A stretch of 24,000 nucleotides of DNA from Clostridiales bacterium (lineage in GTDB: Bacteria > Bacillota > Clostridia > Christensenellales > Aristaeellaceae): positions 1 through 24,000 of the forward strand of contig SVGP01000023.1 in the NCBI GenBank assembly GCA_015056255.1. The letters are read 5' to 3'. The position numbers were made by a program, and so were the translations under genes. The notes under the pieces were generated by a model. The model worked only from the letters and a program-made list of their open reading frames with translations. It did not search any database and was not told the origin of the DNA. Positions within the stretch are counted from its first letter, which is position 1. Each line of letters starts with the position of its first letter. Below are positions 4,675 through 24,000 of the stretch, piece by piece.

Positions 4675-4749
4675 AATTTCCTCCGTGCGCAAATTTGCCG
4701 ATTCTTACTTATTATAATCATACCACAAAACCGCTCTCATTGCAAATGC

Positions 4750-4778
4750 GTGCAATTTGATAAGATGTATGATATACT
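4750..4778 (+). promoter_or_regulatory. Possible extended -10 promoter for the sulfatase gene
   Basis: GTGCAA, a 17-nt spacer ending in TGA, then TATACT (4773-4778). The -35 element is weak. Confidence 0.35.
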
Positions 4779-4806
4779 TAAGTCACTTTCAGGAGGTGCA
4801 TTTTTC

Positions 4807-6315: not shown

Positions 6316-6317
6316 TC

Positions 6318-6359
6318 AAAAAATGGACTTCTGCATTCTTATGCAAAAGTCCATTTTTT
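6318..6359. terminator. Bidirectional intrinsic terminator between convergent genes
   Basis: AAAAAATGGACTT, a 16-nt segment with an inner TGCA/TGCA stem, then AAGTCCATTTTTT. The A-tract and T-tract flanks suit both strands. Confidence 0.75.
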
Positions 6360-6361
6360 GA

Positions 6362-7717: not shown

Positions 7718-7756
7718 ATCTTCACCTCCCGGGAAAATGCATACATACACATATAC

Positions 7757-7785
7757 ATTATACAATAAACCCGAAAAAAACACAA
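7757..7785 (-). promoter_or_regulatory. Possible extended -10 promoter for the LRR protein gene
   Basis: The minus strand reads TTGTGT, a 17-nt spacer ending in TGT, then TATAAT (7762-7757). Confidence 0.4.
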
Positions 7786-7790
7786 CACCG

Positions 7791-7835
7791 CACAAAATAA
7801 ACCCGCCGTCCGAAACATCTGCAGACGGCGGGTTT
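7791..7835 (-). terminator. Intrinsic terminator ending the long T-box-controlled operon
   Basis: The minus-strand RNA reads AAACCCGCCGUC, a 13-nt loop, then GACGGCGGGUUU followed by AUUUUGUG, starting 8 nt after the gamma-subunit stop. Confidence 0.75.
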
Positions 7836-7842
7836 GTGCTTT

Positions 7843-8376
7843 TTACAGCTCGTATCCAAGCGAAATCGCTTTTTTATTAAGCTCAATCAGGTTCTGTCTC
7901 TTTGCGGAAACGACCTTCTGGATGGTTTTGTCGATGGCTTCTACCGGGAACATGCTTGTTTCCTTGAGCATTTTGCCCATGATGATCATGTTTGCCAAGG
8001 TCGCCATGCCCTCTTCGCCCGCAATTTTGGTGGCGGGGATGCCGAAGGCCTTTACGTCTTCGCGCTTGACCTCGCGGTCAATCAGTGAGGAATCGTAGAA
8101 GATCATGCCGCCGGGCGTGACCGCGTCTTCAAACTTATCGAGCGAGGGAAGGTTCATCGCGATCAGCACGTCCGGATTCGGAACGAGGGGCGAGCCGATG
8201 GGGGTATCCGAAATGATGACGGAGCAGGAAGCCGTGCCGCCGCGCATTTCGGGGCCGTAGGAGGGAAGCCATGTGACTTCCTTGTTTTCAAGAAGGCCCT
8301 CATAGGCCAAGAATTTTCCGGTAAACAGAACGCCCTGTCCGCCGAAGCCGGAGATTAAGATATTCACTTGTTTCAT
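7843..8376 (-). CDS. 2-oxoacid:ferredoxin oxidoreductase, gamma subunit (VOR/KOR family)
   Basis: [19 protein letters not shown]...[16 protein letters not shown] is the characteristic gamma-subunit signature. A 4-nt ATGA overlap with the beta subunit indicates translational coupling. Confidence 0.9.
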
Positions 8377-9125
8377 TTTCCGGCCTCCTCCGCGTACTTA
8401 TCCTTGTAAACGCCTAAAGGATAATACGGCATCATGTTTTCCTCCAGCCACTTAAGCGCCTTATCGGGCGTAAGACCCCAATTGGTGGGGCAGGTAGAAA
8501 GAACCTCGATCAGGGAAAAGCCCTTGCCCTCAAGCTGATACCGGAAGGCCTTTTTGATGGCGCGGGCGGCGTTTTTAACGTTCTTGACGTCGTTTACAGC
8601 AACGCGCTCAAGGTAAGCAGCGCCGGTAACATTGCTTAAAAGCTCGCAGACCTTTACAGGATAGCCGACGGATTCAACCTGTCTTCCATAAGGAGAGGTC
8701 TGGGTGACCTGTCCGGGCAGCGTGGTCGGGGCCATCTGACCGCCAGTCATGCCGTAAATGGCGTTGTTTACGAAGATAACGGTGATGTTTTCGCCTCTGG
8801 CTGCGCTGTGCACGGTTTCTGCAGTGCCGATGGCGGCAAGGTCGCCATCACCCTGATAGGTGAAGACGATGTTATTGGGATCAGCGCGCTTTACGCCGGT
8901 GGCGACTGCGGGCGCGCGGCCATGAGCGGCCTGAACCATGTCGCAGTTGAAATAATTATAGGCAAATACAGAGCAGCCGACGGGGGCCACGCCGATGGTT
9001 CTGCCTTCGATGCCCAGTTCGTCAATGGCCTCGGCAACCAGGCGATGAATGATGCCGTGGGTGCAGCCGGGGCAATAGTGAAGTTTTACATCCGCAAGCG
9101 CTTTCGGCTTTTCAAATACGATCAT
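8373..9125 (-). CDS. 2-oxoacid:ferredoxin oxidoreductase, beta subunit (TPP-binding)
   Basis: YCPGCTHG Cys motif and GDGD...AIG...N TPP/Mg-binding block (YQGDGDLAAIGTAETVHSAARGENITVIFVNNAIYGMTGGQ). Confidence 0.92.
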   Translation of the reverse strand: MIVFEKPKALADVKLHYCPGCTHGIIHRLVAEAIDELGIEGRTIGVAPVGCSVFAYNYFNCDMVQAAHGRAPAVATGVKRADPNNIVFTYQGDGDLAAIGTAETVHSAARGENITVIFVNNAIYGMTGGQMAPTTLPGQVTQTSPYGRQVESVGYPVKVCELLSNVTGAAYLERVAVNDVKNVKNAARAIKKAFRYQLEGKGFSLIEVLSTCPTNWGLTPDKALKWLEENMMPYYPLGVYKDKYAEEAGK

Positions 9126-10196
9126 TTACTTATCGCCTCCATTCTTGGCTGCTGCTTCTTCAATGGACTGAAGTACCTGTTCGGGAGTGGGGATCATGCC
9201 GCCGGTACGGGAGCAGAGGGTCACGGGGCGCGAGCAGCGGATGGCAAGCTCGACATCCTCAATCATCTGGCCCATGTTAAGCTCGACCGAAATAAACGCC
9301 TTTGCGGTCTTGGCCTTTTCGAAAAGAACCTTCTTCGGGAACGGCCAAAGGGTGATCGGGCGGATCATACCGGCCTTGATGCCCTTTTCGCGCGCAGCGA
9401 CGATGGCGTTTCTGGCAACACGGGCAGCCACGCCGAAGGCGACGACCACGATGTCCGCGTCATCCGCCATGAATTCTTCGTACATCGCTTCGTTTTCTTC
9501 GATTTCCTTGTACATGGCATATCTTTTGATATTCCACTGCTCAAGCTCTTCCGGAAGCAGCGACAGGGAGTTTACGATGTTGTGGGTTCTTTCTCCCTTG
9601 GTGCCGGTGACCGCCCAGGGCTTATCGTACGCCTTGACTTCGCCCATGTCGAGGGAAACCGGCTCCATCATCTGACCCATAGTGCCGTCAGCAAGGATCA
9701 TGGTGGTCATGCGGTATTTGTCGGCAAGGTCAAAGCCCTTGAACACCAGGCTCGCCATTTCCTGAACGGATGCGGGCGCGAGCACCAGCATTCTGAAGTC
9801 GCCGTGTCCTGCGCCGCGGGTGGCCTGAAAATAGTCGGACTGGCTGGGCTGAATGCCGCCAAGGCCGGGCCCGCCCCTCTGTACGTTTACAATCAGCGCG
9901 GGAAGATCGCAGCCGGCCAAGTAGCTGATGCCTTCGCTTTTTAAGGAAATTCCGGGGCTGGAGGAGGAGGTCATAACGCGCTTGCCGGCGGAGGCAACGC
10001 CGATGACCATATTGATGGCGGCGACTTCGCTTTCCGCCTGAAGGAAGGTTCCGCCGATCTGGGGCATGCGCTTGGCCAGATACGCCGCAACCTCCGTCTG
10101 AGGCGTGATGGGATAGCCGAAATAATGGCGGCAGCCGGCCATGATGGCGGCTTCAGCCAGGGCTTCGTTGCCCTTCATAAGCACTTTATCTGCCAT
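9126..10196 (-). CDS. 2-oxoacid:ferredoxin oxidoreductase, alpha subunit
   Basis: MKGNEALAEAAIMAGCRHYFGYPITPQTE is the conserved alpha N-terminus. Start set at ATG 10196 (MADKVLMKG). The longer ORF would overlap the delta gene. Confidence 0.9.
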   Translation of the reverse strand: MADKVLMKGNEALAEAAIMAGCRHYFGYPITPQTEVAAYLAKRMPQIGGTFLQAESEVAAINMVIGVASAGKRVMTSSSSPGISLKSEGISYLAGCDLPALIVNVQRGGPGLGGIQPSQSDYFQATRGAGHGDFRMLVLAPASVQEMASLVFKGFDLADKYRMTTMILADGTMGQMMEPVSLDMGEVKAYDKPWAVTGTKGERTHNIVNSLSLLPEELEQWNIKRYAMYKEIEENEAMYEEFMADDADIVVVAFGVAARVARNAIVAAREKGIKAGMIRPITLWPFPKKVLFEKAKTAKAFISVELNMGQMIEDVELAIRCSRPVTLCSRTGGMIPTPEQVLQSIEEAAAKNGGDK

Positions 10197-10207
10197 AATC
10201 TTGTTTC

Positions 10208-10414
10208 CTACCTTTCCACAGTGATCACGCAGTCCGGGCACATGGTGGCGCAGAAAGCGCAGCCGATGCACTTTTCAGGTTCCGTGACCTTTGCCGGGTG
10301 ATGTCCCTGCTGGTTTAATTTCGTTTCGTCGAGCGCGACGATTTTCTTGGGGCATGCGCCCACGCAAAGGCCGCAGCCCTTGCATCTTTCCTCGCGGAAC
10401 GTTACTTTTGCCAT
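10208..10414 (-). CDS. 2-oxoacid:ferredoxin oxidoreductase, delta subunit (2x[4Fe-4S] ferredoxin)
   Basis: Two CxxCxxCxxxCP motifs: CKGCGLCVGACP and CIGCAFCATMCP. 68 aa. GGAGGAA ribosome-binding site. Confidence 0.9.
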   Translation of the reverse strand: MAKVTFREERCKGCGLCVGACPKKIVALDETKLNQQGHHPAKVTEPEKCIGCAFCATMCPDCVITVER

Positions 10415-10432: not shown

Positions 10433-11101
10433 TCAATAGATCGCCCATTCGTCGCGGAAATGGAGCCGGATGGGCATGGGATGAACCACTTTGCCTTTGA
10501 TTTCGTTTATCAAATCCTCGCGGACGGTCGTGCCCAGAAGCGGAAGATTTGTTTTTTCGGAAACCTCTCTTGCAAGCGCGTCCGTTTCTGCGATATCCGA
10601 AACCGCAGTCATTTGTCCGAGATTGGAATTGTTGAGAAGGGCCGTAACTTTCATGCCGGAAGCGGTTTCCACTTCCCGAAGCACGCTGATCAATTGATCC
10701 GCCGTCCTCGTAAGCGGACGATAGAAGTTCATCACGAACACCATTTCGTAATCGTCCTCCGCCATTAAGGAAGGCGCGAGCCGTCCAAGCGCAAGCGCGC
10801 CTCTGTCGTCACCGCCAACGTCCACAACCGCGTGCGTTTGCTTGTCGTCGATGATCCTGTACATCTCTTCGGGCAGCGCGGGCACGTCCACATTGGTGTT
10901 TGCGTAGCTTGAAACCACGATTTCCACGCCCGCATCCTTCAGCGCCTTTTCGCTGTCTCTCGTTCTGAAATACGGGTTAACGATGTCAAGATCCGCTATC
11001 AGCGTTTTAAGGCCTTCTTTTTTGAGTCCCAGCGCGTAATTGACCGCGATATTGGTTTTGCCGCTTCCGTAGTGGCCTGAAAAAAGCGTTACTCTTTTCA
11101 C
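10433..11101 (-). CDS. P-loop NTPase of unknown function (MinD/ParA/CooC-like SIMIBI fold)
   Basis: The Walker A-like motif is FSGHYGSGKTNIAVNYA, followed by LIADLDIVNP and VVDVGGDDRG (Walker B-like). The GTG start abuts the ilvE stop (TAAGTG). No closer family is recognisable by eye. Confidence 0.7.
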   Translation of the reverse strand: MKRVTLFSGHYGSGKTNIAVNYALGLKKEGLKTLIADLDIVNPYFRTRDSEKALKDAGVEIVVSSYANTNVDVPALPEEMYRIIDDKQTHAVVDVGGDDRGALALGRLAPSLMAEDDYEMVFVMNFYRPLTRTADQLISVLREVETASGMKVTALLNNSNLGQMTAVSDIAETDALAREVSEKTNLPLLGTTVREDLINEIKGKVVHPMPIRLHFRDEWAIY

Positions 11102-12166
11102 TTATATTTTCTCCGTCCAGCCGAATGCGTCTTCCTTCTTGCCCCACTGGATGCCGGTGAGCTCGTCATACAGCTTCTGGGTGAGCTCGCCGATGTTCCC
11201 GCCGTTTACGACATAAGGAACGTCGTCCACGGACAATTCGCCGATGGGAGACACGACAGCCGCCGTTCCGCAGCCAAACGCCTCTTCAAGCGCGCCCGTT
11301 TTAACCGCCTCGGCCAATTCGTCCACGGAAAGGAGCCTTTCCTCTACCGGGACGCCCCACTTTTCAAGAAGCGCGATACAGCTTCTTCTGGTGATGCCGG
11401 GAAGAACGGATCCTGTGAGCTTCGGGGTAACGACGGTTCCGTTAATTTTGAACATGACGTTCATGGAGCCGACCTCTTCGACATATTTGCGCTCTACGCC
11501 GTCCAGCCACAGAACCTGGGCAAAGCCTTTCTTTTCGGCCTTTTCGCCGGCGCGCATGGAGGCTGCGTAGTTGCCGCCGCACTTGGCATAGCCGGTGCCG
11601 CCGCGAACCGCGCGAACGTCCTCGGTTTCGATCATAATACGGACGGGGTTTACGCCTTCCTTATAATAAGAACCGGAAGGCGAAAGAATGATGATGAAGG
11701 TGGCGTTGTTTACAGTGTGAACGCCCAGGAACGGGTCGTTTCCGAACAGGAAGGGGCGGATATAAAGGGACGCGCCTTCCGCGGAAGGAACCCAGTCGCG
11801 GTCGATATCGATCAGGGTTTTTAAAGCCTTTAAGCAGAATTCGCCGTCGATTCTGGGAAGGCAGAGGCGGTCGGCGGAATCGTTCATGCGGTCAAAGTTG
11901 TCCATGGGGCGGAACAGCTGAATTTCGCCGTCCGGACGGCGGTAGGCCTTCATGCCCTCGAAAATCTCCGCGCCGTAGTGAAGCACGGTAGACGCAGGCG
12001 AGATGGAAATGTTGCCGTAGGGAACGATTCTTGCGTCGTGCCAGCCGTTTTCGCGGTCAAACTCCATCACAAACATGTGATCAGTAAAAACTTTTCCAAA
12101 GCCCAGTTTGCTTGCGTCGGCGGGCTTTACTTTGGGATTCATATTTTTTTCAATACGGATTTCCAT
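11102..12166 (-). CDS. ilvE: Branched-chain amino acid aminotransferase (class IV PLP enzyme)
   Basis: LGFGKVFTDHMF, HYGAEIFEGMKAYR, GTGYAKCGGNYAAS, PGITRRS and GTAAVVSPIG blocks are typical of long-form IlvE. Confidence 0.93.
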   Translation of the reverse strand: MEIRIEKNMNPKVKPADASKLGFGKVFTDHMFVMEFDRENGWHDARIVPYGNISISPASTVLHYGAEIFEGMKAYRRPDGEIQLFRPMDNFDRMNDSADRLCLPRIDGEFCLKALKTLIDIDRDWVPSAEGASLYIRPFLFGNDPFLGVHTVNNATFIIILSPSGSYYKEGVNPVRIMIETEDVRAVRGGTGYAKCGGNYAASMRAGEKAEKKGFAQVLWLDGVERKYVEEVGSMNVMFKINGTVVTPKLTGSVLPGITRRSCIALLEKWGVPVEERLLSVDELAEAVKTGALEEAFGCGTAAVVSPIGELSVDDVPYVVNGGNIGELTQKLYDELTGIQWGKKEDAFGWTEKI

Positions 12167-12215: not shown

Positions 12216-14729
12216 TTATTGATTTGAAAGGCCAAATATTTCCGCAGCTTTTTCGCGCATCTTGTATTTTTGAATTTTGCCTGCGTCGTTCATGATGAAT
12301 TTGTCTACAAACCACACGTACTTGGGCACCTTGTGGCGAGCCATATTGGCGCGGACATAAGCCTTTACGTCCTCTTCCGTCATTTCCTCGCCCTCGCGGA
12401 CAATGACGCAGGCCATAATTTCTTCGCCGTACTGCTTATCGGGAACGCCGATGACCTGAACGTCGGAAATTTTGTCATGCGTAATTAGGAATTCCTCAAT
12501 CTCGCGCGGATAAATGTTTTCGCCGCCTCTGATGATCATGTCCTTGAGTCTGCCCGTCACGCGGTAGTTTCCGTCCTTGTCGCGGATGCAAAGGTCGCCG
12601 GTGTGCAGCCACCCTTCCCTGTCGATGGCTTCGTATGTTGCGGAGGGCATTTTGTAGTAGCCCTTCATGATGTTGTAGCCTCTGGCTACGAATTCGCCCT
12701 GCTCGCCGTCGGGCAGCTCCTTTCCGGTTGCGGGATCGATGATCCTGCATTCGATTTCGGGAAGCGCGCAGCCCACGGTCTGGGTGCGAACGTCCAGAGA
12801 ATCCTCATAGCATCTGCTCATCGTGCAGCCGGGCGCGGCCTCCGTCTGACCATAGACGGATACGATGCCGGTCATGTTCATGCGCTTGGCCGCTTCCCGC
12901 ATGACGCTTTCGGGGCAGTTTGCGCCGGCCATGATGCCGGTTCGCATGTGGGAAAAATCGGTCTTTTCAAAGTCCGGATGCGAAAGCATGGCGATAAACA
13001 TCGTGGGAACGCCATTAAAGCAGGTGATTTTTTCGCGGTTCACGCAGTCCAGCGCGGGCTTGGGCGAAAAGTACGGAAGCGGGCACATGGTGCTTCCGTG
13101 CGTCATGGACGCAGTCATGGAAAGTACCATGCCGAAGCAGTGGAACATGGGCACCTGGATCATCATGCGGTCAGCGGTGGAAAGATCCATTCGGTCGCCG
13201 ATGCATTTTCCGTTGTTGACAACTCCCCTGTGCGTGAGCATGACGCCCTTGGGAAAGCCGGTGGTGCCGGAGGTATACTGCATGTTGGCAACGTCGTCGC
13301 CCTTGATTTCGCTTGCGCGCCTGTATACTTCCTCCAGAGGAACCATGGGCGCACGGTCCATCATTTCATCAAACGTTAAGCATCCTTCCATTTTAAAGCC
13401 GACTGTAACGACGTTTCTTAAGAATGGAAGCCTTTGGGCGTGCAGTGGCTGGCCGGGCTCGGTGTGTTCAAGCTCCGGGCAAAGGCGTTTGATGGTGTCT
13501 ACATAGTTGGAATCGCGGAAGCCGTCCACCATGATAAGCGTGTGGGTATCGGACTGACGCAAAAGGTATTCCGCCTCGGCAATTTTGTAGGCGGTGTTCA
13601 TGGTGACGAGCGTCGCGCCGATTTTTGTAGTCGCCCAGAAGGCGATGTACCACGCGGGCACGTTGGTTGCCCACACGGTTACGTGGCTGTCTCGCTTGAC
13701 GCCCAGAGAAATGAGCGCACGGGCGCAGGCGTCCACATCGTCCCTAAACTGGGAATAGGTGCGCGTGTAGTCGAGGGTGGTGTATTTAAAGCACAATTGA
13801 TCCGGGAATTCCTTGACCATTCTGTCCAGCACCTGCGGGAAAGTCATGTCGATCAAGCTGTCGTGCTTCCAGACATATTTTCCGGTGCCCGCTTTATTGA
13901 GATACAATCCCTGCTCCCATGCGGGCGCGGGCTCAAAGTTTTTGACAAAGGAGGCAAAGTGCGCATACACTACGCCCGGGTCGTCCACTTCCTTAAGCCA
14001 CTCGGGATCCCATTCGAGGGAATAAAAGCCGTCGTAGCTGACGCTTCTTAACGCGCCGAAGATTTCCTTCATCGGAAGCGTGCCTTCGCCGAGCAGGCAG
14101 TATTCTGATTTTCCATCCTTAACGACCGAATCCTTCAGGTGCACATGCTTTACATATGCGCCGAGATTGGTGATCGTCTTTTCGGGCTTTTCGCCCATCA
14201 GGCGGTATGGATGGTGCACATCCCACAAAGCCGCCAGATGATCGCAGGCAAATTCATTTAAAATGCCGACCAGGCGCGAAGTATCGGCAAATATGCCGCA
14301 GGTTTCAATAAGCAAGGTAACGTCCGCCTTTTCAGCAAGCGGCAGAACTTTTTTAACCAGTTCCTTTACGTTTTCGTTTTCCTTTTCCTCGCCCTCGCCT
14401 GTTGAAAGCGCGCGCAGGCGTACAAAGGGAGCGTTTACCTTATCTGCAAAGGCGATGAGGTTTTTAATTTCCTCAGCTCTTTTGCCGTCTTCATCGTTTT
14501 CTGCGGGGTTCATGCGCGCATCAAGGCAGGTGATCGTGAGCCCCAGCGCTTTTAAGGATCGAACGGTGTGGTCGATTTCACCCTTTTGAAACGGCGCGCC
14601 AACGCCCGTAAACCGGCTTTCGCCGATATCGTGAATCTCGATGCCGTCAAGGCGCATTTCCCTTGCCACCGACACAAAATCGGCAAAGGAAAAGCTGTTC
14701 CAGCCGTAGGTGGATACGGAAAGCTTCAT
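12216..14729 (-). CDS. Fusion protein with an N-terminal xylose-isomerase-like TIM barrel (sugar phosphate isomerase/epimerase family) and a C-terminal AMP-forming acyl-CoA ligase
   Basis: Residues 1 to about 265 show TIM-barrel features (LDGIEIH, LLIETC, HLKD, SLEW). From about residue 290 the sequence is FadD-like, with YTSGTTGFPKGVMLTH (A3/P-loop), GQTE, WLHTGDL, RLKDMIIRGGENIYPREIE and a C-terminal GKIQK lysine motif. It overlaps the upstream gene by 4 nt (ATGA). Confidence 0.85.
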   Translation of the reverse strand: MKLSVSTYGWNSFSFADFVSVAREMRLDGIEIHDIGESRFTGVGAPFQKGEIDHTVRSLKALGLTITCLDARMNPAENDEDGKRAEEIKNLIAFADKVNAPFVRLRALSTGEGEEKENENVKELVKKVLPLAEKADVTLLIETCGIFADTSRLVGILNEFACDHLAALWDVHHPYRLMGEKPEKTITNLGAYVKHVHLKDSVVKDGKSEYCLLGEGTLPMKEIFGALRSVSYDGFYSLEWDPEWLKEVDDPGVVYAHFASFVKNFEPAPAWEQGLYLNKAGTGKYVWKHDSLIDMTFPQVLDRMVKEFPDQLCFKYTTLDYTRTYSQFRDDVDACARALISLGVKRDSHVTVWATNVPAWYIAFWATTKIGATLVTMNTAYKIAEAEYLLRQSDTHTLIMVDGFRDSNYVDTIKRLCPELEHTEPGQPLHAQRLPFLRNVVTVGFKMEGCLTFDEMMDRAPMVPLEEVYRRASEIKGDDVANMQYTSGTTGFPKGVMLTHRGVVNNGKCIGDRMDLSTADRMMIQVPMFHCFGMVLSMTASMTHGSTMCPLPYFSPKPALDCVNREKITCFNGVPTMFIAMLSHPDFEKTDFSHMRTGIMAGANCPESVMREAAKRMNMTGIVSVYGQTEAAPGCTMSRCYEDSLDVRTQTVGCALPEIECRIIDPATGKELPDGEQGEFVARGYNIMKGYYKMPSATYEAIDREGWLHTGDLCIRDKDGNYRVTGRLKDMIIRGGENIYPREIEEFLITHDKISDVQVIGVPDKQYGEEIMACVIVREGEEMTEEDVKAYVRANMARHKVPKYVWFVDKFIMNDAGKIQKYKMREKAAEIFGLSNQ

Positions 14730-16162: not shown

Positions 16163-16461
16163 TTTCAAAAAAACACGCCCCGGAAACACCTGTTTCCGGG
16201 GCGACAATTTTATTATCGCGGTACCACCCGAATTGATTGCCGAAAAAGCAACCCTCTCATTTAAGGTTCCAATAAACCCTGCGCCAAGATAACGGGGCGA
16301 ACCGTGACGCCTTACTGAAGAAGTTTTTGAAATTCTCCGTTCAGGCATCCTGCTCGAGAAGGAGATGATTCCAATCACTCTGCGCCGCCTCGCACCAAAC
16401 ACGGCTCTCTTCAGCAGGTTGGAAAGGAACCTGGTTCCGTCATAGCATTTGATTTTGCAAT
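16163..16461 (-). promoter_or_regulatory. T-box riboswitch leader 1 (inferred specifier CUC, Leu) with terminator/antiterminator
   Basis: The minus-strand RNA has a K-turn (UGCUAUGAC GGAA ... UUCU CGAGCA), an AG bulge (AGAGAG) and a distal loop (UUUGGUGCGA). The T-box sequence AAUUCGGGUGGUACCGCG lies at 16234-16217. The antiterminator CGGG[UGGUACC]GCGA...UCGC-CCCG competes with the terminator GCCCCGGAAACA-GG-UGUUUCCGGGGC plus a U7 run (16203-16163). The codon at the canonical position is CUC (16364-16362). Confidence 0.88.
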
Positions 16462-16554: not shown

Positions 16555-18876
16555 TTAGAGCTTGTTTCTCTGAATCTTGCCGCTTGTGGTCTTGGGCAAT
16601 TCATCACGGAAGACGACAATGCGCGGATATTTATAAGGCGCGGTCTTCTTCTTGACGTAATTCTGGATTTCCTTTTTAAGTTCCTCCGTAGGCTCCGTTC
16701 CCTTGGTAAGGACGATGCTCGCCTTGACCACCTGACCGCGGATTTCATCCGGCGCAGCGGATACGCCGCACTCAATAACATAGGGAAGCTCCATAATGAC
16801 GGATTCGATTTCAAACGGCCCGATTCGGTAACCGGAGGACTTGATCACGTCGTCCACGCGGCCCACATACCAGAAGTAGCCGTCTTCGTCCATCCACGCG
16901 GTATCGCCCGTGTGGTACATGCCATCGGAAACATCCAGAACCGGCTTTTTGAGCGTATTATCGTAGTATCCGCGCGTAAGGCCGCAGGGCAGGCCGTCTT
17001 CCACATGGATGACGATTTCGCCCGTTTCGCCGACGCCCACGCTCTTGCCCTCCGGATTTACAATGTCCACATCGTACAGCGGCACGGGTTTTCCCATGGA
17101 ACCGACCTTGGGCGTCATGCCGACGGTGTTTCCGATCATCATAGTGGTTTCCGACTGGCCGAAGCCCTCCATGAGGGATAAGCCCGTGGCCTTCTTGAAC
17201 TGGTGGAACACCTCGGGGTTCAGGGCCTCGCCCGCGATGGTCGCATGCTTGATGGAGGAAAGATCGAACTTCGAAAGATCCTCCTTGATCATGAAGCGAT
17301 ACATGGTGGGCGGCGCGCAGAAGGTGGTGATGTTGTATTTTTTGAACATCGGAAGGATATCGTTGGCGTCGAAGCGATCAAAGTCGTATACGAAAATCGC
17401 GCCTTCGCTCAGCCACTGACCGTAGAGCTTGCCCCACATGCTCTTGGCCCAGCCGGTGTCGGAAATGGTGTAGTGAAGGCCGTTGGGGTCGACGGTATGC
17501 CAGTAGTGGGCGGTAATGAAGTGGCCCAGCGGGTAGGTATATGTGTGGGATGCGATCTTGGGATAGCCGGTTGTTCCGCTGGTAAAGAACATGAGCATAA
17601 GGTCCTCGCCCTCGGGGCGTTTTTCGCCTTCCGGCACGGTGAGGGTAGATCTGAACATGCGGTATTCCGTGTCAAAGCTTCTCCAGCCATCGCGTTCGCC
17701 CTCAACCACGATGCGGTTACCAACAAACGGACACTCCTCAAGCGCAAGCTCCGCCTGATTGATGCAGTCGCCGACGCCGGTCACGATGACGGTGGAGACG
17801 CCGGCGGCAGTAAATCTGTAGGAAAGATCCTTTTTCAGAAGCTGGTTGGGTGCGAGGATTGCGATTGCGCCGATTTTCTGAAGCGCCATCATGATGATCC
17901 AGAACTGATAATGACGGCGGAGCATCAGAAGCACCTTGTCGCCCTTTTTGACGCCGATGGATCTGAAGTAGTTGGCGGCGCGGTTGGAAAGGCGCGAAAT
18001 ATCGGCAAAGGTGAAGCGGTTTTCCACGCCGTCGCGCGAAATGTGCATCATGGCCAGCTTTTCAGGGTTGTTCTTACCCAGCTCGTCCACAATGTCAAAG
18101 GCAAAGTTGAACTTTTCAGGATTTTTGAAGGAAATGGCTTTCAAAGAGCCATCGGGATTTTCAACCGCGTCCACCCACTTCGACCAGATGTGCTCGCCCT
18201 CGGGCGCAGTATGCACGGGCGCGGGCGCAATTTCGACCTTGGGAAGGGTCATCATGGGCTCTTTGACGGTGAGCTCCGGAATCGCATCGCCCGACGGATT
18301 TAAAACAATCGCGTAAAACAGGCAGTTTTCGCCGCCCACCGCGATCATGCCGTGGGGCTTGGAGGAGTCGTAATAGATGCTGTCGCCGGGGCCCAGAATC
18401 TCCCAGTGCGTTCCGACCTGCACCTTGAGCTTACCGGAAATAACGATATCGCATTCCTGGCCCTCGTGGCTGGTCAGTTCAATGTCCTGATACTGCGCCT
18501 CCTCGGAATAGGCGGCGTTTACGTACAAAGGCTCAGCGATTCGGTTTTTGAACTGCGCAGCGAGGTTATAGTACACCATGCCGTGCGCCTGCTCTATCCT
18601 CTGCCCCATGCCGTTTCTGGTTACGGTGTAGCCGGAAAGACGGGGGCTCGCGCCCTCGATAATATCGGTAACGTCAACATTCAAAACCAGCGCGCAGCGG
18701 TAAATAAAGGCGAAGTTCAGATCCGCCTTGCCCGCCTCGCAAAGTCTGTATTCCTCAATCGTAACGCCCGTCTTTTTGGCCATGCTCTCTTCGGAAATAC
18801 CCTCGATTTCACGAAGCTCCTTAATACGGCCTGCCATCTCCTGAAGCTTGAATTCCAGACCCGTCGTCTGATTCAT
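16555..18876 (-). CDS. HTH(XRE)-cupin-acyl-CoA synthetase fusion (AMP-forming, medium/short-chain ACS-like), paralog A
   Basis: Residues 12-72 form a Cro/C1-type HTH (RIKELREIEGISEESMAKKTGVTIEEYRLCEAGK). Residues around 105-195 form a cupin (SHEGQECDIVISGKLKVQVG...GDSIYYDSSKPHG). The remainder is an AMP-binding enzyme (FTSGTTGYPKIASHT, GFGQSETT, YHTGDTA, DDVIKSSGYRIGPFEIES, SGKIQRN). Start at ATG 18876, with AAAGGGGG 9 nt upstream. Confidence 0.9.
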   Translation of the reverse strand: MNQTTGLEFKLQEMAGRIKELREIEGISEESMAKKTGVTIEEYRLCEAGKADLNFAFIYRCALVLNVDVTDIIEGASPRLSGYTVTRNGMGQRIEQAHGMVYYNLAAQFKNRIAEPLYVNAAYSEEAQYQDIELTSHEGQECDIVISGKLKVQVGTHWEILGPGDSIYYDSSKPHGMIAVGGENCLFYAIVLNPSGDAIPELTVKEPMMTLPKVEIAPAPVHTAPEGEHIWSKWVDAVENPDGSLKAISFKNPEKFNFAFDIVDELGKNNPEKLAMMHISRDGVENRFTFADISRLSNRAANYFRSIGVKKGDKVLLMLRRHYQFWIIMMALQKIGAIAILAPNQLLKKDLSYRFTAAGVSTVIVTGVGDCINQAELALEECPFVGNRIVVEGERDGWRSFDTEYRMFRSTLTVPEGEKRPEGEDLMLMFFTSGTTGYPKIASHTYTYPLGHFITAHYWHTVDPNGLHYTISDTGWAKSMWGKLYGQWLSEGAIFVYDFDRFDANDILPMFKKYNITTFCAPPTMYRFMIKEDLSKFDLSSIKHATIAGEALNPEVFHQFKKATGLSLMEGFGQSETTMMIGNTVGMTPKVGSMGKPVPLYDVDIVNPEGKSVGVGETGEIVIHVEDGLPCGLTRGYYDNTLKKPVLDVSDGMYHTGDTAWMDEDGYFWYVGRVDDVIKSSGYRIGPFEIESVIMELPYVIECGVSAAPDEIRGQVVKASIVLTKGTEPTEELKKEIQNYVKKKTAPYKYPRIVVFRDELPKTTSGKIQRNKL

Positions 18877-18895: not shown

Positions 18896-19192
18896 GTCAA
18901 AAAAATCCGCCTCAAAGAAACATATCGTCTTTGAGGCGAATGAAAAAATCTTTCACACGCGGTACCACTCAAATTCACGCATTTTGAAAATGCGCCTCAC
19001 GGCTCCATCAAGCCGTTCTCCCTTTTCGCAGGCTCACGGGAGGCTCTACTGATTTCGGTCACCCGAAACGTTCTGCCGTCCGGCTCGGAAGCGACAAATT
19101 CTGCCTTCTCGTTACCGGCTCGCACCAAGCGCCGGCTCTCTGAAACGATTTTCCGTCAGAATCCTCTTCGTCATCGCCAATGATATGAAATT
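18896..19192 (-). promoter_or_regulatory. T-box riboswitch leader 2 (inferred specifier GUC, Val)
   Basis: The minus-strand RNA has a K-turn (GGCGAUGAC GAAG ... CUUC CGAGCC) and an AG bulge plus distal loop (AGAGAGCCGGCGCUUGGUGCGAGCCGG). The T-box sequence AAUUUGAGUGGUACCGCG lies at 18975-18958. The antiterminator is UUGAG[UGGUACC]GCG...CGC-CUCAA. The terminator is CGCCUCAAAGA, 9 nt, UCUUUGAGGCG, then GAUUUUUUU (18938-18896). The codon at the canonical position is GUC (19095-19093), followed by G. Confidence 0.88.
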
Positions 19193-19304: not shown

Positions 19305-19327
19305 AAAAATATAAGGAGGCGATGTGC

Positions 19328-19594
19328 ATGCCAGAACTAAGCAGGTTTGCCGGAATCATTGTCAAAATGATTTTCAACGATACCGTTCAACATAATAAAC
19401 CCCACGTTCACGTATATTACGGTGAATATCAGGCCTCCATCGGCATTGATGGCGAATTATTGGCAGGTTCACTGCCTGTAAAGCAGCTAAAAATGGTTGT
19501 TGGATGGCTGGCACTTCACGAAGAAGAGGCCTATGCTGCATGGAATAAGGCTGTACGCGGCGAACGCTTCGACAAGATCAAACCCCTGATTTAA
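19328..19594 (+). CDS. DUF4160-family small protein
   Basis: MPELSRFAGIIVKMIFND..HNKPHVHVYYGEYQASIGIDGELLAGSLP matches the DUF4160 pattern (MP.ISRF.GI.I.MY..DH.PPHFH). Start taken at ATG 19328, 8 nt after AAGGAGG. Confidence 0.8.
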   Translation: MPELSRFAGIIVKMIFNDTVQHNKPHVHVYYGEYQASIGIDGELLAGSLPVKQLKMVVGWLALHEEEAYAAWNKAVRGERFDKIKPLI

Positions 19595-19605
19595 GGAGAT
19601 ATGCT

Positions 19606-19890
19606 ATGTATATTATTGACGGAATCGCATATGCATCCCAAAAAATGCAGGAAACATTCGTAACGGCAGTTAAACCGCTTGACGATATGATGATGATCGT
19701 CACATTCGGATCCGGCGAAAAACGATTGTATGACGCCTCTCAACTTCTCGATTTCCCAGCATTTCAACCCCTTAAAGATGAAACTGTTTTCATGAATGCA
19801 AAGGTGGAATATGGCGTCGTCACATGGGCGGACGGTGAAATCGACATTGCGCCGGAAACCATGTACGAAAACAGCTACGAATATCAATAA
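19606..19890 (+). CDS. DUF2442-family small protein
   Basis: The pattern (V.PLDD..L.V.F..GE.R..D...LLD.P.F.PL.D...F..V.V..G.V.W..GEIDIAPE.LYE) is typical of DUF2442. AAGGAG lies 7 nt upstream. The start is 11 nt after the DUF4160 stop. Confidence 0.8.
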   Translation: MYIIDGIAYASQKMQETFVTAVKPLDDMMMIVTFGSGEKRLYDASQLLDFPAFQPLKDETVFMNAKVEYGVVTWADGEIDIAPETMYENSYEYQ

Positions 19891-19902
19891 AGAATATATC
19901 AA

Positions 19903-19940
19903 GGCAGCGCACGGCCTGTGCGCTGCCTGACTTTTCTATT
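19903..19940 (+). terminator. Intrinsic terminator after the DUF2442 gene
   Basis: GGCAGCGCAC, a 5-nt loop, GTGCGCTGCC, then TGACTTTTCTATTT. It may also serve the convergent minus-strand gene. Confidence 0.7.
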
Positions 19941-19984
19941 TGCAAGAATTGTAATTACGGAAGATTCCTCTATATTTTTCTCCC

Positions 19985-20995
19985 TCATTCCCCAAAGAAC
20001 ACTCTGGGCGTATTGATGATACAAAATGCAATAACATCCTTATAGCGTTTGGTTTTCCCTGTTTCCAATGATACACAGTATGCATCCGCGCCGTATAAGG
20101 CGCGCATCCTAAAATAAACAAGTTCCTTTCCGGCTTTCGATACGGCGATACCCGTTTCCGGCTCCAGCAAGGACAAAGTAATCGTTTTCCCTTTTCTTGT
20201 CTTATAGTCTTCAATTGTATTTTCCTGAACGGAATACATTTTGAGAACTCCGTCTTTGTCAATAAACAAAAGCGTATCGTCATTCAGCCATGCGGGCGCT
20301 TCCCCTTCGCCGATATCTCTGACATTTCCGTCTGAATCGATTATAACAATCCTGTCAGGCAGGATAATATACGGGAATGCAAAGGAATCCTTGGTTTCAT
20401 CAAGGATTGTTTCGTAATAGCTGAATGCAATCCTGCCGCTTGACGAAACCGTATTTGAAGTCGTGTAAGTGTATCCGCGATTATCCGCCGGCGAAACAGC
20501 CCCATTTAACATCGCCCATTCCGGCGGGCAAAAACACATCTGGTAATCAACATGCGGATAAACGAATGTATCTCCGTTTTTGTTTAAGCGAACATACTCG
20601 CAGCAATATTCCTTGTTTTCCGCCAATCGGCAATAGTAGTAATCATCTCCATGCGCCGCAAATACATGCAGAAGGTTCGGATCCTTTATGATGCAGTCCG
20701 TTTGGATGTTTCCGTCTTCATGGACAGTGAGGATTTCCGTTTCACCGATCTCAATATGTTCACGCGCAGCACGCACACCCACTTCTTCAGTAAAGCCCTC
20801 AATCAGATAAAAATCCGCAGGACATACATCCTCGGCATGCTTTTTCGAAAGATCCTGTTTTCTGAACAACTGCGGATGATCGTCATCATCATACTCCACA
20901 AAGAAAACAGTACCGGATATCCCTGACGCAGCACACGCAGGGAACATTGAAGTAAAAATCACCATGATCAAAAGCAGGCAGAATTTCTTTTTCAT
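19985..20995 (-). CDS. Secreted Cys-rich hypothetical protein
   Basis: Signal peptide MKKKFCLLLIMVIFTSMFPACA with an A-x-A cleavage site. GGAGGAA ribosome-binding site. The C-terminal half has beta-propeller-like repeats (IIDSDGNVRDIG, LFIDKDGVLKMY). No recognisable enzyme motifs. Confidence 0.7.
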   Translation of the reverse strand: MKKKFCLLLIMVIFTSMFPACAASGISGTVFFVEYDDDDHPQLFRKQDLSKKHAEDVCPADFYLIEGFTEEVGVRAAREHIEIGETEILTVHEDGNIQTDCIIKDPNLLHVFAAHGDDYYYCRLAENKEYCCEYVRLNKNGDTFVYPHVDYQMCFCPPEWAMLNGAVSPADNRGYTYTTSNTVSSSGRIAFSYYETILDETKDSFAFPYIILPDRIVIIDSDGNVRDIGEGEAPAWLNDDTLLFIDKDGVLKMYSVQENTIEDYKTRKGKTITLSLLEPETGIAVSKAGKELVYFRMRALYGADAYCVSLETGKTKRYKDVIAFCIINTPRVFFGE

Positions 20996-21113: not shown

Positions 21114-23390
21114 TTACAGAAGATTCCTCTGGATCTTTCCGCTGATGGTTTTGGGAAGCTCATCCTTGAAGACGACGATTCTCGGATACTTGTAGGGCGC
21201 GGTTTTGTGCTTTACGTATTCCTGAATTTCCTTTTTGAGTTCCTCGGTGGGTTCGGTGCCCTTGGTTAAGACGATGCTCGCCTTGACCACCTGGCCGCGG
21301 ATCTCGTCGGGGGCTGCGGAAACGCCGCACTCGAGGACGTAGGGAAGCTCCATGATGACGGATTCGATTTCAAACGGCCCAATGCGGTAGCCGGAGGACT
21401 TGATCAGATCGTCCACGCGGCCTACATACCAGAAGTAGCCGTCTTCGTCCTTCCATGCGGTATCGCCGGTGTGGTACATGCCGTCCGAAAGGTCGATTTC
21501 AGGAACGCCCTTTTCGTTGTTGTAATAGCCGAGAGTAAGACCCATCGGGGGCTTGCCGTCCTTAAGGCGCACGACGATTTCGCCGGTTTCGCCCTGCTGG
21601 ACGCTGTTGCCGTCGTGATCGACGATGTCGATGTCGTAATTGGGAACGGGCTTGCCCATGGAGCCGACCTTCGGGCGCATACCGACGAGATTGGCGATGG
21701 TAAGGGTGGTTTCGGTCTGACCGAAGCCTTCCATAAGGGAGATGCCCGTGGCTTTTCTGAACTGATAGAAGACCTCGGGGTTCAAAGCTTCGCCTGCGAT
21801 GGTGGCATGCTCAATGGAAGAAAGATCGTATTTGGAAAGATCTTCCTTGATCATGAAGCGATACATGGTGGGCGGCGCGCAGAAGGTTGTGATGTGATAC
21901 TTTTTGAACATCGGCAGAATGACAGAGGCGTCGAAGCGGTCAAAGTCGTATACGAACGTCGCCGCCTCGCACATCCACTGGCCGTAAAGCTTGCCCCACA
22001 GCGCCTTGCCCCAGCCGGTGTCGGAGATAGTGAAGTGAAGGCCATCTGGGTTGACGTTGTGCCAATATTTGGCGGTAGCAAAATGCGCAAGCACGTATTT
22101 ACAGGAGTGAGTTGCGATCTTGGGATAGCCCGTCGTTCCGCTTGTAAAGAGCATGAGCATGGGATCGTCGCCCTTGATGGAATCCTCCGTTCTCGGGAAG
22201 GTGGAGGAGAACATGCGGGCTTCGGTGTCAAAGTCGCGCCAGCCCTCGCGAACGCCGTCGACGATGATTCTGTGTTTTAAAGTCGGGCTGTCCTTAAGCG
22301 CCTTGTCTACTTCTTCTGCAACCTTTCCCGTGCCCGTACAGATGATAGCGGAAACGCCGGCGGCATTGAAGCGGTAGGTAAGGTCGTGTTCGACCAGAAG
22401 GTTGGTTGCGGGGATGACGATTGCACCCAGCTTATGAAGCGCAAGAATGGCCTGCCAGAACTGATAATGGCGGCGCAGAATCAGCATGACTCTGTCGCCC
22501 TTTTTGATGCCGAGGGATTTAAAATAGTTGGCAACGCGGGAGGAAGAGCGGGAAAGCTCGCGGAAAGTGAACTTTCTTTCCTCCATATTGCGGCTTACGT
22601 GAACCATTGCAACCTTATCGGGCTTCTTTTCGGCGATGGCGTCCACGATATCGAAGGCAAAGTTGAACTCGTCCGCGTTTTTGTATTTGATCTCCTTGAC
22701 AAGGCCGTTTTCGTCCTCAACGCCCTCGACGAATTTTTCATAAATTCTGCCCTCAGTGCGCTTGGCGGCGACGATGGTGTCCCTGATTTCGAGCTCCTCC
22801 GTCTCCTCGCCCGGCAGTACCACCGCGCAGAAATAGCAGTCCTGACCTTCCACCGCGATCATGCCGTGGGGCGTTGAGGAGTCGTAATAGATGCTGTCGC
22901 CTTCATGCAGGATCTCGGTATGCTCGCCCACCTGCACCTTCAGTGCGCCGGACATGATCAGGTCAAATTCCTGACCGCTGTGGCGGGTCAGATGGATGGG
23001 GCTTTTCTGCTGCTCGGGCGAATATTCGTATTTTACAAAATAAGGCTCGGCAATCTTCTTTTTGAAAAGCGGCGCAAGGGACCTGATTTCAAGGCCTACT
23101 TCGCGCGCGGTAACCGTGCCCTGGCCTTTTCTGGTAACGGTGTACTGGGTCAGGCGCGCGGATTTACCTTCCATAAGGTCGGTGATTTCAACGCCCAGTT
23201 CCAGCGCGCATTTGTGGATGAAGCTGAAGGGGAAGTCCAGCTGGCCGTCCTCGTACTGCACATACATTTCGAGGCTCACTTCCGTGCGCTCGGCCATTTC
23301 CTCCCTTGAAAAACCAGCGATTTCACGCAGCTCACGAATTCGGGCCGCCACCTCGAAGATTTTATTGGTCGCGTTGTTTGTCGCCTGCAT
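21114..23390 (-). CDS. HTH(XRE)-cupin-acyl-CoA synthetase fusion, paralog B
   Basis: Same three-domain layout as 16555-18876: RIRELREIAGFSREEMAERTEVSLEMYVQYEDGQ, then RHSGQEFDLIMSGALKVQVG...GDSIYYDSSTPHG, then FTSGTTGYPKIATHS...SGKIQRN. The C-terminal 90 aa are nearly identical to paralog A. Start at ATG 23390, with GGAGGG upstream. Confidence 0.9.
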   Translation of the reverse strand: MQATNNATNKIFEVAARIRELREIAGFSREEMAERTEVSLEMYVQYEDGQLDFPFSFIHKCALELGVEITDLMEGKSARLTQYTVTRKGQGTVTAREVGLEIRSLAPLFKKKIAEPYFVKYEYSPEQQKSPIHLTRHSGQEFDLIMSGALKVQVGEHTEILHEGDSIYYDSSTPHGMIAVEGQDCYFCAVVLPGEETEELEIRDTIVAAKRTEGRIYEKFVEGVEDENGLVKEIKYKNADEFNFAFDIVDAIAEKKPDKVAMVHVSRNMEERKFTFRELSRSSSRVANYFKSLGIKKGDRVMLILRRHYQFWQAILALHKLGAIVIPATNLLVEHDLTYRFNAAGVSAIICTGTGKVAEEVDKALKDSPTLKHRIIVDGVREGWRDFDTEARMFSSTFPRTEDSIKGDDPMLMLFTSGTTGYPKIATHSCKYVLAHFATAKYWHNVNPDGLHFTISDTGWGKALWGKLYGQWMCEAATFVYDFDRFDASVILPMFKKYHITTFCAPPTMYRFMIKEDLSKYDLSSIEHATIAGEALNPEVFYQFRKATGISLMEGFGQTETTLTIANLVGMRPKVGSMGKPVPNYDIDIVDHDGNSVQQGETGEIVVRLKDGKPPMGLTLGYYNNEKGVPEIDLSDGMYHTGDTAWKDEDGYFWYVGRVDDLIKSSGYRIGPFEIESVIMELPYVLECGVSAAPDEIRGQVVKASIVLTKGTEPTEELKKEIQEYVKHKTAPYKYPRIVVFKDELPKTISGKIQRNLL

Positions 23391-23417
23391 GAAAATCCCT
23401 CCTTTGAAATGAATTTT

Positions 23418-23707
23418 GAAAATAAAAAAACGCCCCAAAGAAACCACTGTTTCTTTGAGACGAAAATCACTTTATAGATTTCCGCGGTACCACTCAAATT
23501 GCGTTTGTCAAAAACGCCCCTTAACAGGCTCCATCAAGCCCTGCGCCTGTAACGCTGCGCCAGCGGGAAGAGACTACTGGAAAAATTTCATCCTTCCGGC
23601 TCGGGAGTGATGGGCACATTGACCATATGCTTTCGCCGGCTTTCACCAAGCGCCGGCTCTCTGTGGAAATGCATTTTGATCTGCCGTCTCCGTCATTGCT
23701 TTTCTTG
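23418..23707 (-). promoter_or_regulatory. T-box riboswitch leader 3 (inferred specifier AUC, Ile)
   Basis: The minus-strand RNA has a K-turn (AGCAAUGAC GGAG ... CUCC CGAGCC) and an AG bulge plus distal loop (AGAGAGCCGGCGCUUGGUGAAAGCCGGCG). The T-box sequence AAUUUGAGUGGUACCGCG lies at 23500-23483. The terminator is CGUCUCAAAGAAAC, 4 nt, GUUUCUUUGGGGCG, then a U7 run (23462-23418). The codon at the canonical position is AUC (23611-23609), followed by A. Confidence 0.88.
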
Positions 23708-23713
23708 GAAGAT

Positions 23714-23742
23714 ATATTACCACCGATCGCCACGTTTGTCAA
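23714..23742 (-). promoter_or_regulatory. Sigma-A promoter of T-box unit 3
   Basis: TTGACA (23742-23737), a 17-nt spacer ending in TGG, then TAATAT (23719-23714), with an A/T-rich UP-like tract upstream. Confidence 0.7.
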
Positions 23743-23874
23743 TTCCTTTTTTCAAAAAAATCTGAATTTTTCATATTTCAATTATGCATAAAAATTTACA
23801 CACTTTTATTCCCCCAAGTGCGCACGGGCGGTAAAAAACGTGTATAATACCCATATTCTCAAAGGAGTGAGACC

Positions 23875-24000
23875 ATGTACGAAATTTATGACGCGCATAC
23901 GCATATTTATCCAGATAAAATAGCTCAGAAGGCCAGTAAAACCATCGGCGAATTCTATGACATCCATATGCATTTTGACGGAACAGTCGATGCGCTTTTG
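23875..24000 (+). CDS. Partial CDS (5' end only), probably a metal-dependent amidohydrolase-fold (TIM barrel) hydrolase
   Basis: MYEIYDAHTHIYPDKIAQKA...: the D/H-x-H motif right at the N-terminus is typical of amidohydrolase_2-type proteins. AAAGGAG lies 8 nt upstream, and TGTATAAT (extended -10) is at 23841-23848. Only 42 codons are visible. Confidence 0.5.
   Translation, partial: MYEIYDAHTHIYPDKIAQKASKTIGEFYDIHMHFDGTVDALL

Follow-up and report, generated by a model that had tools for sequence, protein, structure and literature searches.

Class I T-box riboswitches, exemplified by the Bacillus subtilis ileS and tyrS leaders, combine a UGGN bulge, a 14-nucleotide (nt) T-box sequence, and competing antiterminator and terminator structures, and ileS T-boxes typically carry AUC as the specifier codon. 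It has also been clear since the 1960s that cellulolytic Clostridia of the rumen and gut need isobutyrate, 2-methylbutyrate, and isovalerate and convert them to valine, isoleucine, and leucine. In the rumen branched-acid carboxylation described by Allison and co-workers (1962-1971), the acid is activated, carboxylated in a ferredoxin-dependent reductive step, and transaminated, so that 2-methylbutyrate yields isoleucine, isobutyrate yields valine, and isovalerate yields leucine. Here, we analyzed a 24,000-nt stretch from a Clostridiales bacterium (contig SVGP01000023.1, positions 1 to 24,000; hereafter, the window), in which a T-box RNA on the minus strand precedes a gene for a helix-turn-helix (HTH)-cupin module fused to an acyl-CoA synthetase (ACS). 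Taken as a whole, the leader is likely to be a class I, transcription-attenuating T-box that is specific for tRNA-Ile(GAU) and controls a 2-methylbutyrate-activating enzyme for isoleucine synthesis.

This locus shares central features with each of its closest described relatives and departs from each of them. The leader has the full architecture of the ileS and tyrS T-boxes, including the bulge, the T-box sequence, and the competing structures; however, its target is an HTH-cupin-ACS rather than an aminoacyl-tRNA synthetase, a classical biosynthetic operon, or a transporter. A covarying helix also takes the place of the specifier-loop S-turn, and the sister copies score only 75 to 85 bits, which is below the gathering score of the family. 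Among enzymes, MacsMa (Protein Data Bank [PDB] code 3ETC) has, like the product of this gene, a Gly at the position of Acs Trp414, an alternate Trp (W443 here), and a Gly at position 461, but it is archaeal, lacks the HTH-cupin N-terminal module, and has no known riboswitch control. MbcS of Staphylococcus aureus is the best-scoring curated family for both HTH-cupin paralogues in the window. In S. aureus, however, one enzyme serves both acids and feeds fatty acid synthesis, whereas here two paralogues stand under isoleucine and valine T-boxes and are linked to a 2-oxoacid:ferredoxin oxidoreductase (VOR) and IlvE. The rumen pathway of Allison and co-workers, established by physiological and isotopic work, calls for just the set of activities proposed here, and the relatives come from rumen and gut Clostridia.

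The T-box was identified by covariance-model search (cmscan against Rfam 15, in which RF00230 has a gathering score of 93 bits). A scan of the whole window placed RF00230 at 23705..23453 on the minus strand with 102.2 bits (E = 7.6e-22), covering model positions 1 to 219 of 219. Two T-boxes in the window reached the gathering score, and a permissive scan added a third, at 19183..18929, with 75.4 bits. An earlier annotation of this DNA (the original prediction) had proposed a T-box in front of the second HTH-cupin-ACS gene, within an interval (23418-23742) that reaches from the -35 box through the U-tract, and the search bears this out. The leader is composed of the following parts:

23714..23742, minus strand: sigma-70-type promoter (TTGACA at 23742-23737, 17-nt spacer, TG-n-TAATAT with the -10 box at 23719-23714)
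23599..23699, minus strand: Stem I (cmscan alignment; RNAalifold on 71 orthologous Stem I sequences)
23609..23611, minus strand: specifier codon AUC (on the Rfam specifier positions, with A23608 after it and C23612 before it)
23501..23598, minus strand: Stem II with a GAA/AGUA S-turn, Stem IIA/B region, F-box CGUUA (23554-23550), and Stem III (cmscan, model positions about 104-182)
23455..23497, minus strand: antiterminator (cmscan and direct reading)
23424..23462, minus strand: intrinsic terminator (14-bp stem 23462-23449/23444-23431, loop AGUG, U7 at 23430-23424)

The promoter matches the consensus at 10 of 12 positions, has an extended -10 TG, and is the sole promoter-like site in 23300-24000. 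Because chance alone would yield roughly one such match in this interval (mean of 1.1 in shuffles), we base the promoter call on its fitting position and on the lack of an alternative. At its base, Stem I has closing GC/GC pairs, followed by a kink-turn (K-turn; AAUGAC...CGA) and a lower helix in which CUCC (23607-23604) pairs with GGAG (23691-23688) above the K-turn. The specifier internal loop (AC on the 5′ side and C-AUC-A on the 3′ side) lies beneath the helix GGCA/UGCC, and upper Stem I carries the AG bulge AGAGA (23662-23658) and the distal loop GCUUGGUGAAA (23651-23641). Stem I therefore contains the K-turn, the specifier loop, the AG bulge, and the distal loop, the tRNA-elbow platform, that define a T-box.

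The T-box sequence, AAUUUGAGUGGUACCGCG, occupies 23500-23483, and the antiterminator 5′ half was found as predicted, reading UUGAG[UGGUACC]GCG at 23497-23483 (UUGAG at 23497-23493 and the T-box bulge UGGUACC at 23492-23486). Its inner helix is GCGGAAAUC/GAUUUUCGU, and CUCAA (23459-23455) closes it. The UGGU of the bulge, which is complementary to the tRNA 3′ ACCA, is present in 123/123 leaders examined. Checking the terminator by hand recovered the 14 pairs, two of them G-U, and the U7 that the original prediction had described. The 5′ arm of this terminator contains the antiterminator 3′ strand CUCAA (shared segment, CGUCUCAAAG), and thus the two structures are mutually exclusive. The terminator belongs to the minimum free energy fold of the whole leader (-101.2 kcal/mol; z = -2.96), indicating the default-off state that a T-box requires, and a hairpin with a T-run follows the T-box motif in 71/72 isoleucine-type leaders. 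A translational T-box was ruled out by this strong, conserved terminator with its U-tract. The RNA mechanism is ordinary, and all of the defining T-box features that could be tested are present. We regard the assignment to RF00230 as virtually certain and attenuation as the highly likely mechanism.

In the mechanism that we propose, the transcript would begin some 10 nt past the -10 box. Stem I would then dock the tRNA through pairing of AUC (23611-23609) with the anticodon GAU and through contacts of the AG bulge and the distal loop with the tRNA elbow. An uncharged tRNA would offer a free ACCA-3′ end for pairing with UGGU in the T-box bulge and would thereby stabilize the antiterminator. With its 3′ strand held in the antiterminator, the 14-bp terminator could not form, and RNA polymerase would continue into the gene. 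With charged tRNA-Ile, the terminator, as the more stable structure, would form and end transcription at the U7 tract.

The identity of the tRNA depends on the specifier codon. On the 3′ side, the specifier loop of the window leader reads ...UGCC C AUC A CUCC CGA GC. The predicted specifier, CCC-AUC-A before CUCC, is thus present in the sequence, and cmscan independently places AUC-A (23611-23608) on the specifier positions of the model, directly 5′ of CUCC. A single base separates the triplet, in the 3′ strand of the loop, from the lower helix, and the triplet encodes the amino acid of the putative regulated pathway. Comparative analysis, which the original prediction had set in advance as the test of its isoleucine-type specifier, was performed on 80 loci from GTDB species representatives; these loci encode proteins related to the downstream one, which has at least 589 such relatives. 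In nearly all 80 loci, a T-box motif precedes the gene by about 100 nt, and many loci have a second one just after the gene. Specifiers were extracted in a structure-aware manner that required the K-turn, both closing helices, and the AG and distal motifs; two calls (L009_5526 and L065_2871) were set by eye. The isoleucine assignment held: the specifier is AUC, at the same structural position, in 72/72 leaders that precede an orthologue of this gene. Leaders before the sister paralogue carry GUA (46 of 50) or GUC (4 of 50), and the single leuA leader of the window carries CUC.

Covariation fixes the register of this codon. In the RNAalifold consensus of 71 distinct isoleucine-type Stem I sequences (aligned with MAFFT), AUC is invariant at columns 96-98. 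The lower helix occurs as the compensatory variants GAAG/CUUC, GGAG/CUCC, and GAGG/CCUC, and the helix directly above the codon, GGNN/NNCC, covaries strongly (UA 26, AU 19, and CG 18 at one pair). Compensatory changes occur at 17/23 Stem I pairs, and 93.3% of Stem I cells are paired, compared to 78.9% in column shuffles (0/500 shuffles as high). The neighboring frames vary, with CAU and UAU both occurring in the -1 frame and every third base occurring in the UCN of the +1 frame. Because AUC alone is invariant and its register is fixed by two covarying helices, we take AUC to be the specifier and tRNA-Ile(GAU) to be the cognate tRNA. On these comparative grounds, the leader is with very high probability specific for isoleucine.

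The gene downstream of the terminator has these features:

21114..23390, minus strand: regulated gene, 758 amino acids (Pfam: HTH_19, residues 16-76; Cupin_2, 122-189; AMP-binding, 251-623; AMP-binding_C, 674-752)

For this gene, the open reading frame (ORF) list behind the original prediction gave a mechanical start at GTG 23447. The gene itself stood, but this start, which falls within the terminator, did not. Translation instead begins at ATG 23390, which is preceded by the ribosome-binding site AAAGGAGGG (23405-23397) and gives a length like that of the homologues (757-758 amino acids). Such HTH-cupin-ACS fusions are common in uncultured gut and rumen Clostridia (Oscillospiraceae, Acutalibacteraceae, Christensenellaceae, and "Ruminococcus" metagenome-assembled genomes), where current annotation calls them simply "AMP-binding protein" or "acetyl-CoA synthetase." For both HTH-cupin paralogues, the best NCBIfam model is MbcS (NF047394), at 443 bits against an equivalog cut-off of 850. 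The closest PDB entry is 3ETC (MacsMa of Methanosarcina acetivorans; E = 7.9e-184 over residues 234-755), and the N-terminal module alone has a weak match to the uncharacterized HTH-cupin regulator 1Y9Q (E = 0.003).

Pocket positions were assigned by alignment with fragments of Salmonella Acs (AcsSe) that had been verified against the PDB. We take Val310 and Trp414 of Acs to line the acetate pocket, with Val310 as one of four pocket residues. Gly557 aligns with Trp414, and W443 corresponds in alignment to the alternate pocket Trp in MacsMa (the Trp of TAKYW in 3ETC). The protein thus combines AMP-binding and AMP-binding_C domains, a Gly at the Acs Trp414 position, and the alternate Trp, as in the MacsMa/MbcS-type fold. 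MacsMa prefers 2-methylbutyrate as a substrate and adenylates C3-C8 acids (PMC10455477), and MbcS takes 2-methylbutyrate and isobutyrate as substrates but scarcely activates isovalerate (PMC10026030). We infer that the product is a MacsMa/MbcS-like short branched-chain ACS, with 2-methylbutyrate as its most likely substrate.

The two paralogues are cleanly sorted by their leaders. AUC leaders precede the paralogue like the one studied here (ACS2) in 72/72 cases, and GUA/GUC leaders precede the paralogue like the first HTH-cupin-ACS of the window (ACS1) in 42 of the 43 cases with a readable ORF. Among the full-length proteins, the nearest neighbor belongs to the same specifier group in 106/106. 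Together with the valine specifiers (GUA or GUC) in 50/50 leaders of the sister paralogue, this grouping agrees with the proposal of a dedicated isoleucine unit. Eight alignment positions separate the groups cleanly across the 106 proteins, and seven of them (59, 60, 73, 97, 100, 102, and 117) fall in the HTH-cupin module, a distribution that suggests that the N-terminal module may also distinguish isoleucine- from valine-related ligands or operators. The eighth, position 461, is the sole separator in the catalytic domain; it is Gly in all isoleucine-type and Ala in all valine-type proteins. This position aligns with Acs Val310, and MacsMa has Gly there. Because the two side chains differ by one carbon in the opposite sense to the acids, Gly461 and Ala461 would fit 2-methylbutyrate and isobutyrate, respectively. 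Together with the preference of MacsMa and the MbcS model match, this lends indirect support to 2-methylbutyrate, the substrate named in the original prediction. Position 461 is therefore a candidate residue for C5-versus-C4 acid specificity.

Downstream of the isoleucine-type gene, the window encodes a valine T-box with its ACS and a leucine T-box with a longer operon:

18929..19183, minus strand: sister T-box, specifier GUC-G (valine); cmscan 75.4 bits, below the gathering score, E = 6.1e-15
18876..16555, minus strand: first HTH-cupin-ACS, behind the valine T-box
16194..16452, minus strand: third T-box, specifier CUC-C (leucine); cmscan 101.8 bits
16126..14726, minus strand: leuA-like gene, below all isopropylmalate synthase equivalog cut-offs
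14729..12216, minus strand: xylose-isomerase-like TIM barrel fused to an ACS
12166..11102, minus strand: ilvE (Pfam, NCBIfam)
11101..10433, minus strand: P-loop protein, MinD/ParA-like
10414..10208, minus strand: ferredoxin, 68 amino acids, 2x[4Fe-4S] (ORF)
about 10196..7843, minus strand: VOR alpha/beta/gamma, VorB-type (Pfam, NCBIfam)

These genes could supply the remaining steps of the pathway. The enzyme would most likely convert 2-methylbutyrate, ATP, and CoA to 2-methylbutyryl-CoA; reductive carboxylation of this product by the four-subunit VOR nearby would give 2-oxo-3-methylvalerate; and IlvE would form isoleucine from the 2-oxoacid by transamination. According to a passage of PMC7356843 that cites Robinson & Allison 1969, rumen anaerobes make isoleucine from 2-methylbutyrate. 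We favor, with moderate confidence, a role as a 2-methylbutyrate-CoA ligase that feeds VOR and IlvE for isoleucine; the tRNA binding, in vivo response, enzyme substrate, and pathway direction assumed here are predictions from sequence. More broadly, there is about an even chance that the AUC, GUC/GUA, and CUC T-boxes, each with its own ACS and beside one VOR and one IlvE, constitute the long-missing genetic and regulatory basis of branched-acid carboxylation, with the HTH-cupin module as a second sensor.

The arrangement is conserved. In a relative with 82% identity, a T-box with the isoleucine-type ACS, a T-box with the valine-type ACS, and a T-box with the leuA-like operon are contiguous on one strand. 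The leucine side of this relative runs in the order leuA-like gene, TIM-barrel-ACS, ilvE, P-loop protein, ferredoxin, VOR alpha, and VOR beta, and the same gene order is found in loci L081-L083. The window holds the same genes, but about 2 kb (19322-20995) is inserted between the isoleucine-type ACS and the valine T-box, which are directly adjacent in L081-L083 and many GTDB loci. In L081, a close relative, the isoleucine and valine leaders score 84.5 and 76.5 bits (9723-9953 and 12364-12600), both below 93; thus, annotation by threshold would miss much of this T-box family.

Several observations weigh against our reading of the locus. The specifier loop region of the leader (23682-23687 and 23608-23616; alignment columns 14-19 and 91-99) is atypical: it lacks the AGUA/GAA S-turn, a typical but nondefining feature, and has the Watson-Crick helix GGCA/UGCC instead, which leaves a loop of 2 nt opposite 5 nt ("AC" versus "Y-AUC-N"). 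Nor is the base after the codon the usual conserved purine; it is A in the window leader and A or C about equally across the family (C in about half of the orthologues). The window contains no tRNA gene, and so there is no tRNA-Ile to compare with the leader. For the enzyme, an MbcS score below the cut-off means that the substrate is not transferable by annotation rules and that the protein is a relative rather than an equivalog. Moreover, an alternate acyl pocket is reported for MacsMa, and residue 461 may thus lie away from the substrate. Finally, VOR and ilvE stand behind the leucine T-box, not the isoleucine T-box, and induction on isoleucine starvation alone is unexplained. The unusual loop is also what favors reading the specifier as an overlapping triplet (UCA for serine or CAU for histidine) or in another loop register, with a different tRNA as the ligand, as does the fact that the +1 frame, UCN, is a serine codon with any fourth base. 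A serine reading would, however, require different tRNA-Ser isoacceptors, since the base after the invariant triplet can be A, C, G, or U; the base before it is C or U. The flanking helices, 93% paired in the AUC register, fall to 28-51% when the partner columns are slid by one to three (48-51% for a one-column slide), cmscan puts AUC on the model's specifier positions, and the sister leaders read valine and leucine at the same position beside branched-chain amino acid genes. RF00230 also still matches the window leader over its full length despite the replaced S-turn. The frames UCN and CAU were rejected as specifiers, as neither is conserved across orthologous leaders, and a specifier other than AUC is very improbable.

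With isoleucine retained as the signal, the enzyme might instead serve lipids, providing 2-methylbutyryl-CoA as a FabH primer for anteiso branched-chain fatty acids, as S. aureus MbcS does; uncharged tRNA-Ile would then be a proxy for a shortage of the isoleucine-derived primer. In Allison's work, rumen cocci reportedly required branched short-chain acids not only for amino acids but also for lipids, a need that would favor this role, and the best NCBIfam model, MbcS, has exactly this function (PMC10026030, PMC11167679). Yet the gene is conserved beside ilvE and a VorB-type 2-oxoacid:ferredoxin oxidoreductase under a sister leucine T-box, which points to amino acid synthesis, and the known targets of T-boxes are otherwise aminoacyl-tRNA synthetases, amino acid biosynthesis, and transport (PMC3766115). 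We consider a lipid role unlikely as the explanation, and the lipid and amino acid roles are compatible with each other. Some anaerobes synthesize isoleucine from propionate via 2-oxobutyrate synthase. The enzyme could accordingly activate propionate, with propionyl-CoA being reductively carboxylated to 2-oxobutyrate and entering the ordinary isoleucine pathway, and the activity of MacsMa on C3-C8 acids (PMC10455477) would permit this. The pocket argues otherwise, as the isoleucine-type proteins have the smaller Gly461 and the valine-type proteins have the larger Ala461, which is the opposite of what C3 versus C4 acids would predict. Furthermore, the closest characterized relatives complete the reaction best with 2-methylbutyrate, and no de novo genes (ilvBN/C/D) are linked, apart from the leuA-like gene behind the leucine T-box. 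Propionate is thus a decidedly improbable substrate, and 2-methylbutyrate for isoleucine synthesis remains the reading that we prefer.

In the literature searched, which lacked most subscription journals, we found no link of T-boxes to ACSs, VOR, or branched-acid carboxylation and no paper assigning these genes or T-box control to the rumen branched-acid pathway. CoA ligases and oxidoreductases are likewise not mentioned in the T-box regulon surveys that we checked. What is new, as judged from absence of evidence only in this literature, is the regulated gene class and the isoleucine/valine/leucine T-box triad beside a 2-oxoacid:ferredoxin oxidoreductase and IlvE. If the broader reading of the triad is correct, activation of each branched acid would await the uncharging of its own tRNA, and the HTH-cupin module would be a second, amino acid- or acid-specific sensor that is fused to the enzyme and provides allosteric or DNA-binding feedback. 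The carboxylation pathway makes many rumen and gut Clostridia dependent on branched short-chain acids. A T-box specifier serves as a built-in label of the amino acid served, and here two near-identical paralogues are labeled isoleucine and valine and a third operon leucine. These labels give testable gene-to-substrate assignments and one candidate specificity residue (Gly/Ala 461). For annotation, the sister leaders score below the Rfam gathering threshold, and standard pipelines therefore miss part of the system.

Other features of the window lie around these operons. The insert upstream of the valine T-box encodes the following:

19985-20995, minus strand: ORF of 336 amino acids with a hydrophobic N-terminus and no Pfam match
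19322-19594 and 19606-19890, plus strand: DUF4160/DUF2442 pair, in the opposite orientation

Between the T-box promoter and a divergent plus-strand ORF that starts at 23875 (MYEIYDAHTHIYPDK...), two imperfect inverted repeats (23754-23847) are 72-75% complementary. These weak repeats might be operators for the HTH module. Relatives carry an Amidohydro_2 gene at the position of the plus-strand ORF. A hairpin at 6309-6368 sits between a convergent sulfatase gene (4171-6315, plus strand) and a leucine-rich-repeat (LRR)/DUF6273 gene (6362-7795, minus strand). On both strands it weakly matches microRNA families (E = 0.04 and 0.14), with scores that fall well short of the gathering thresholds, and it is most likely a bidirectional terminator rather than a microRNA.

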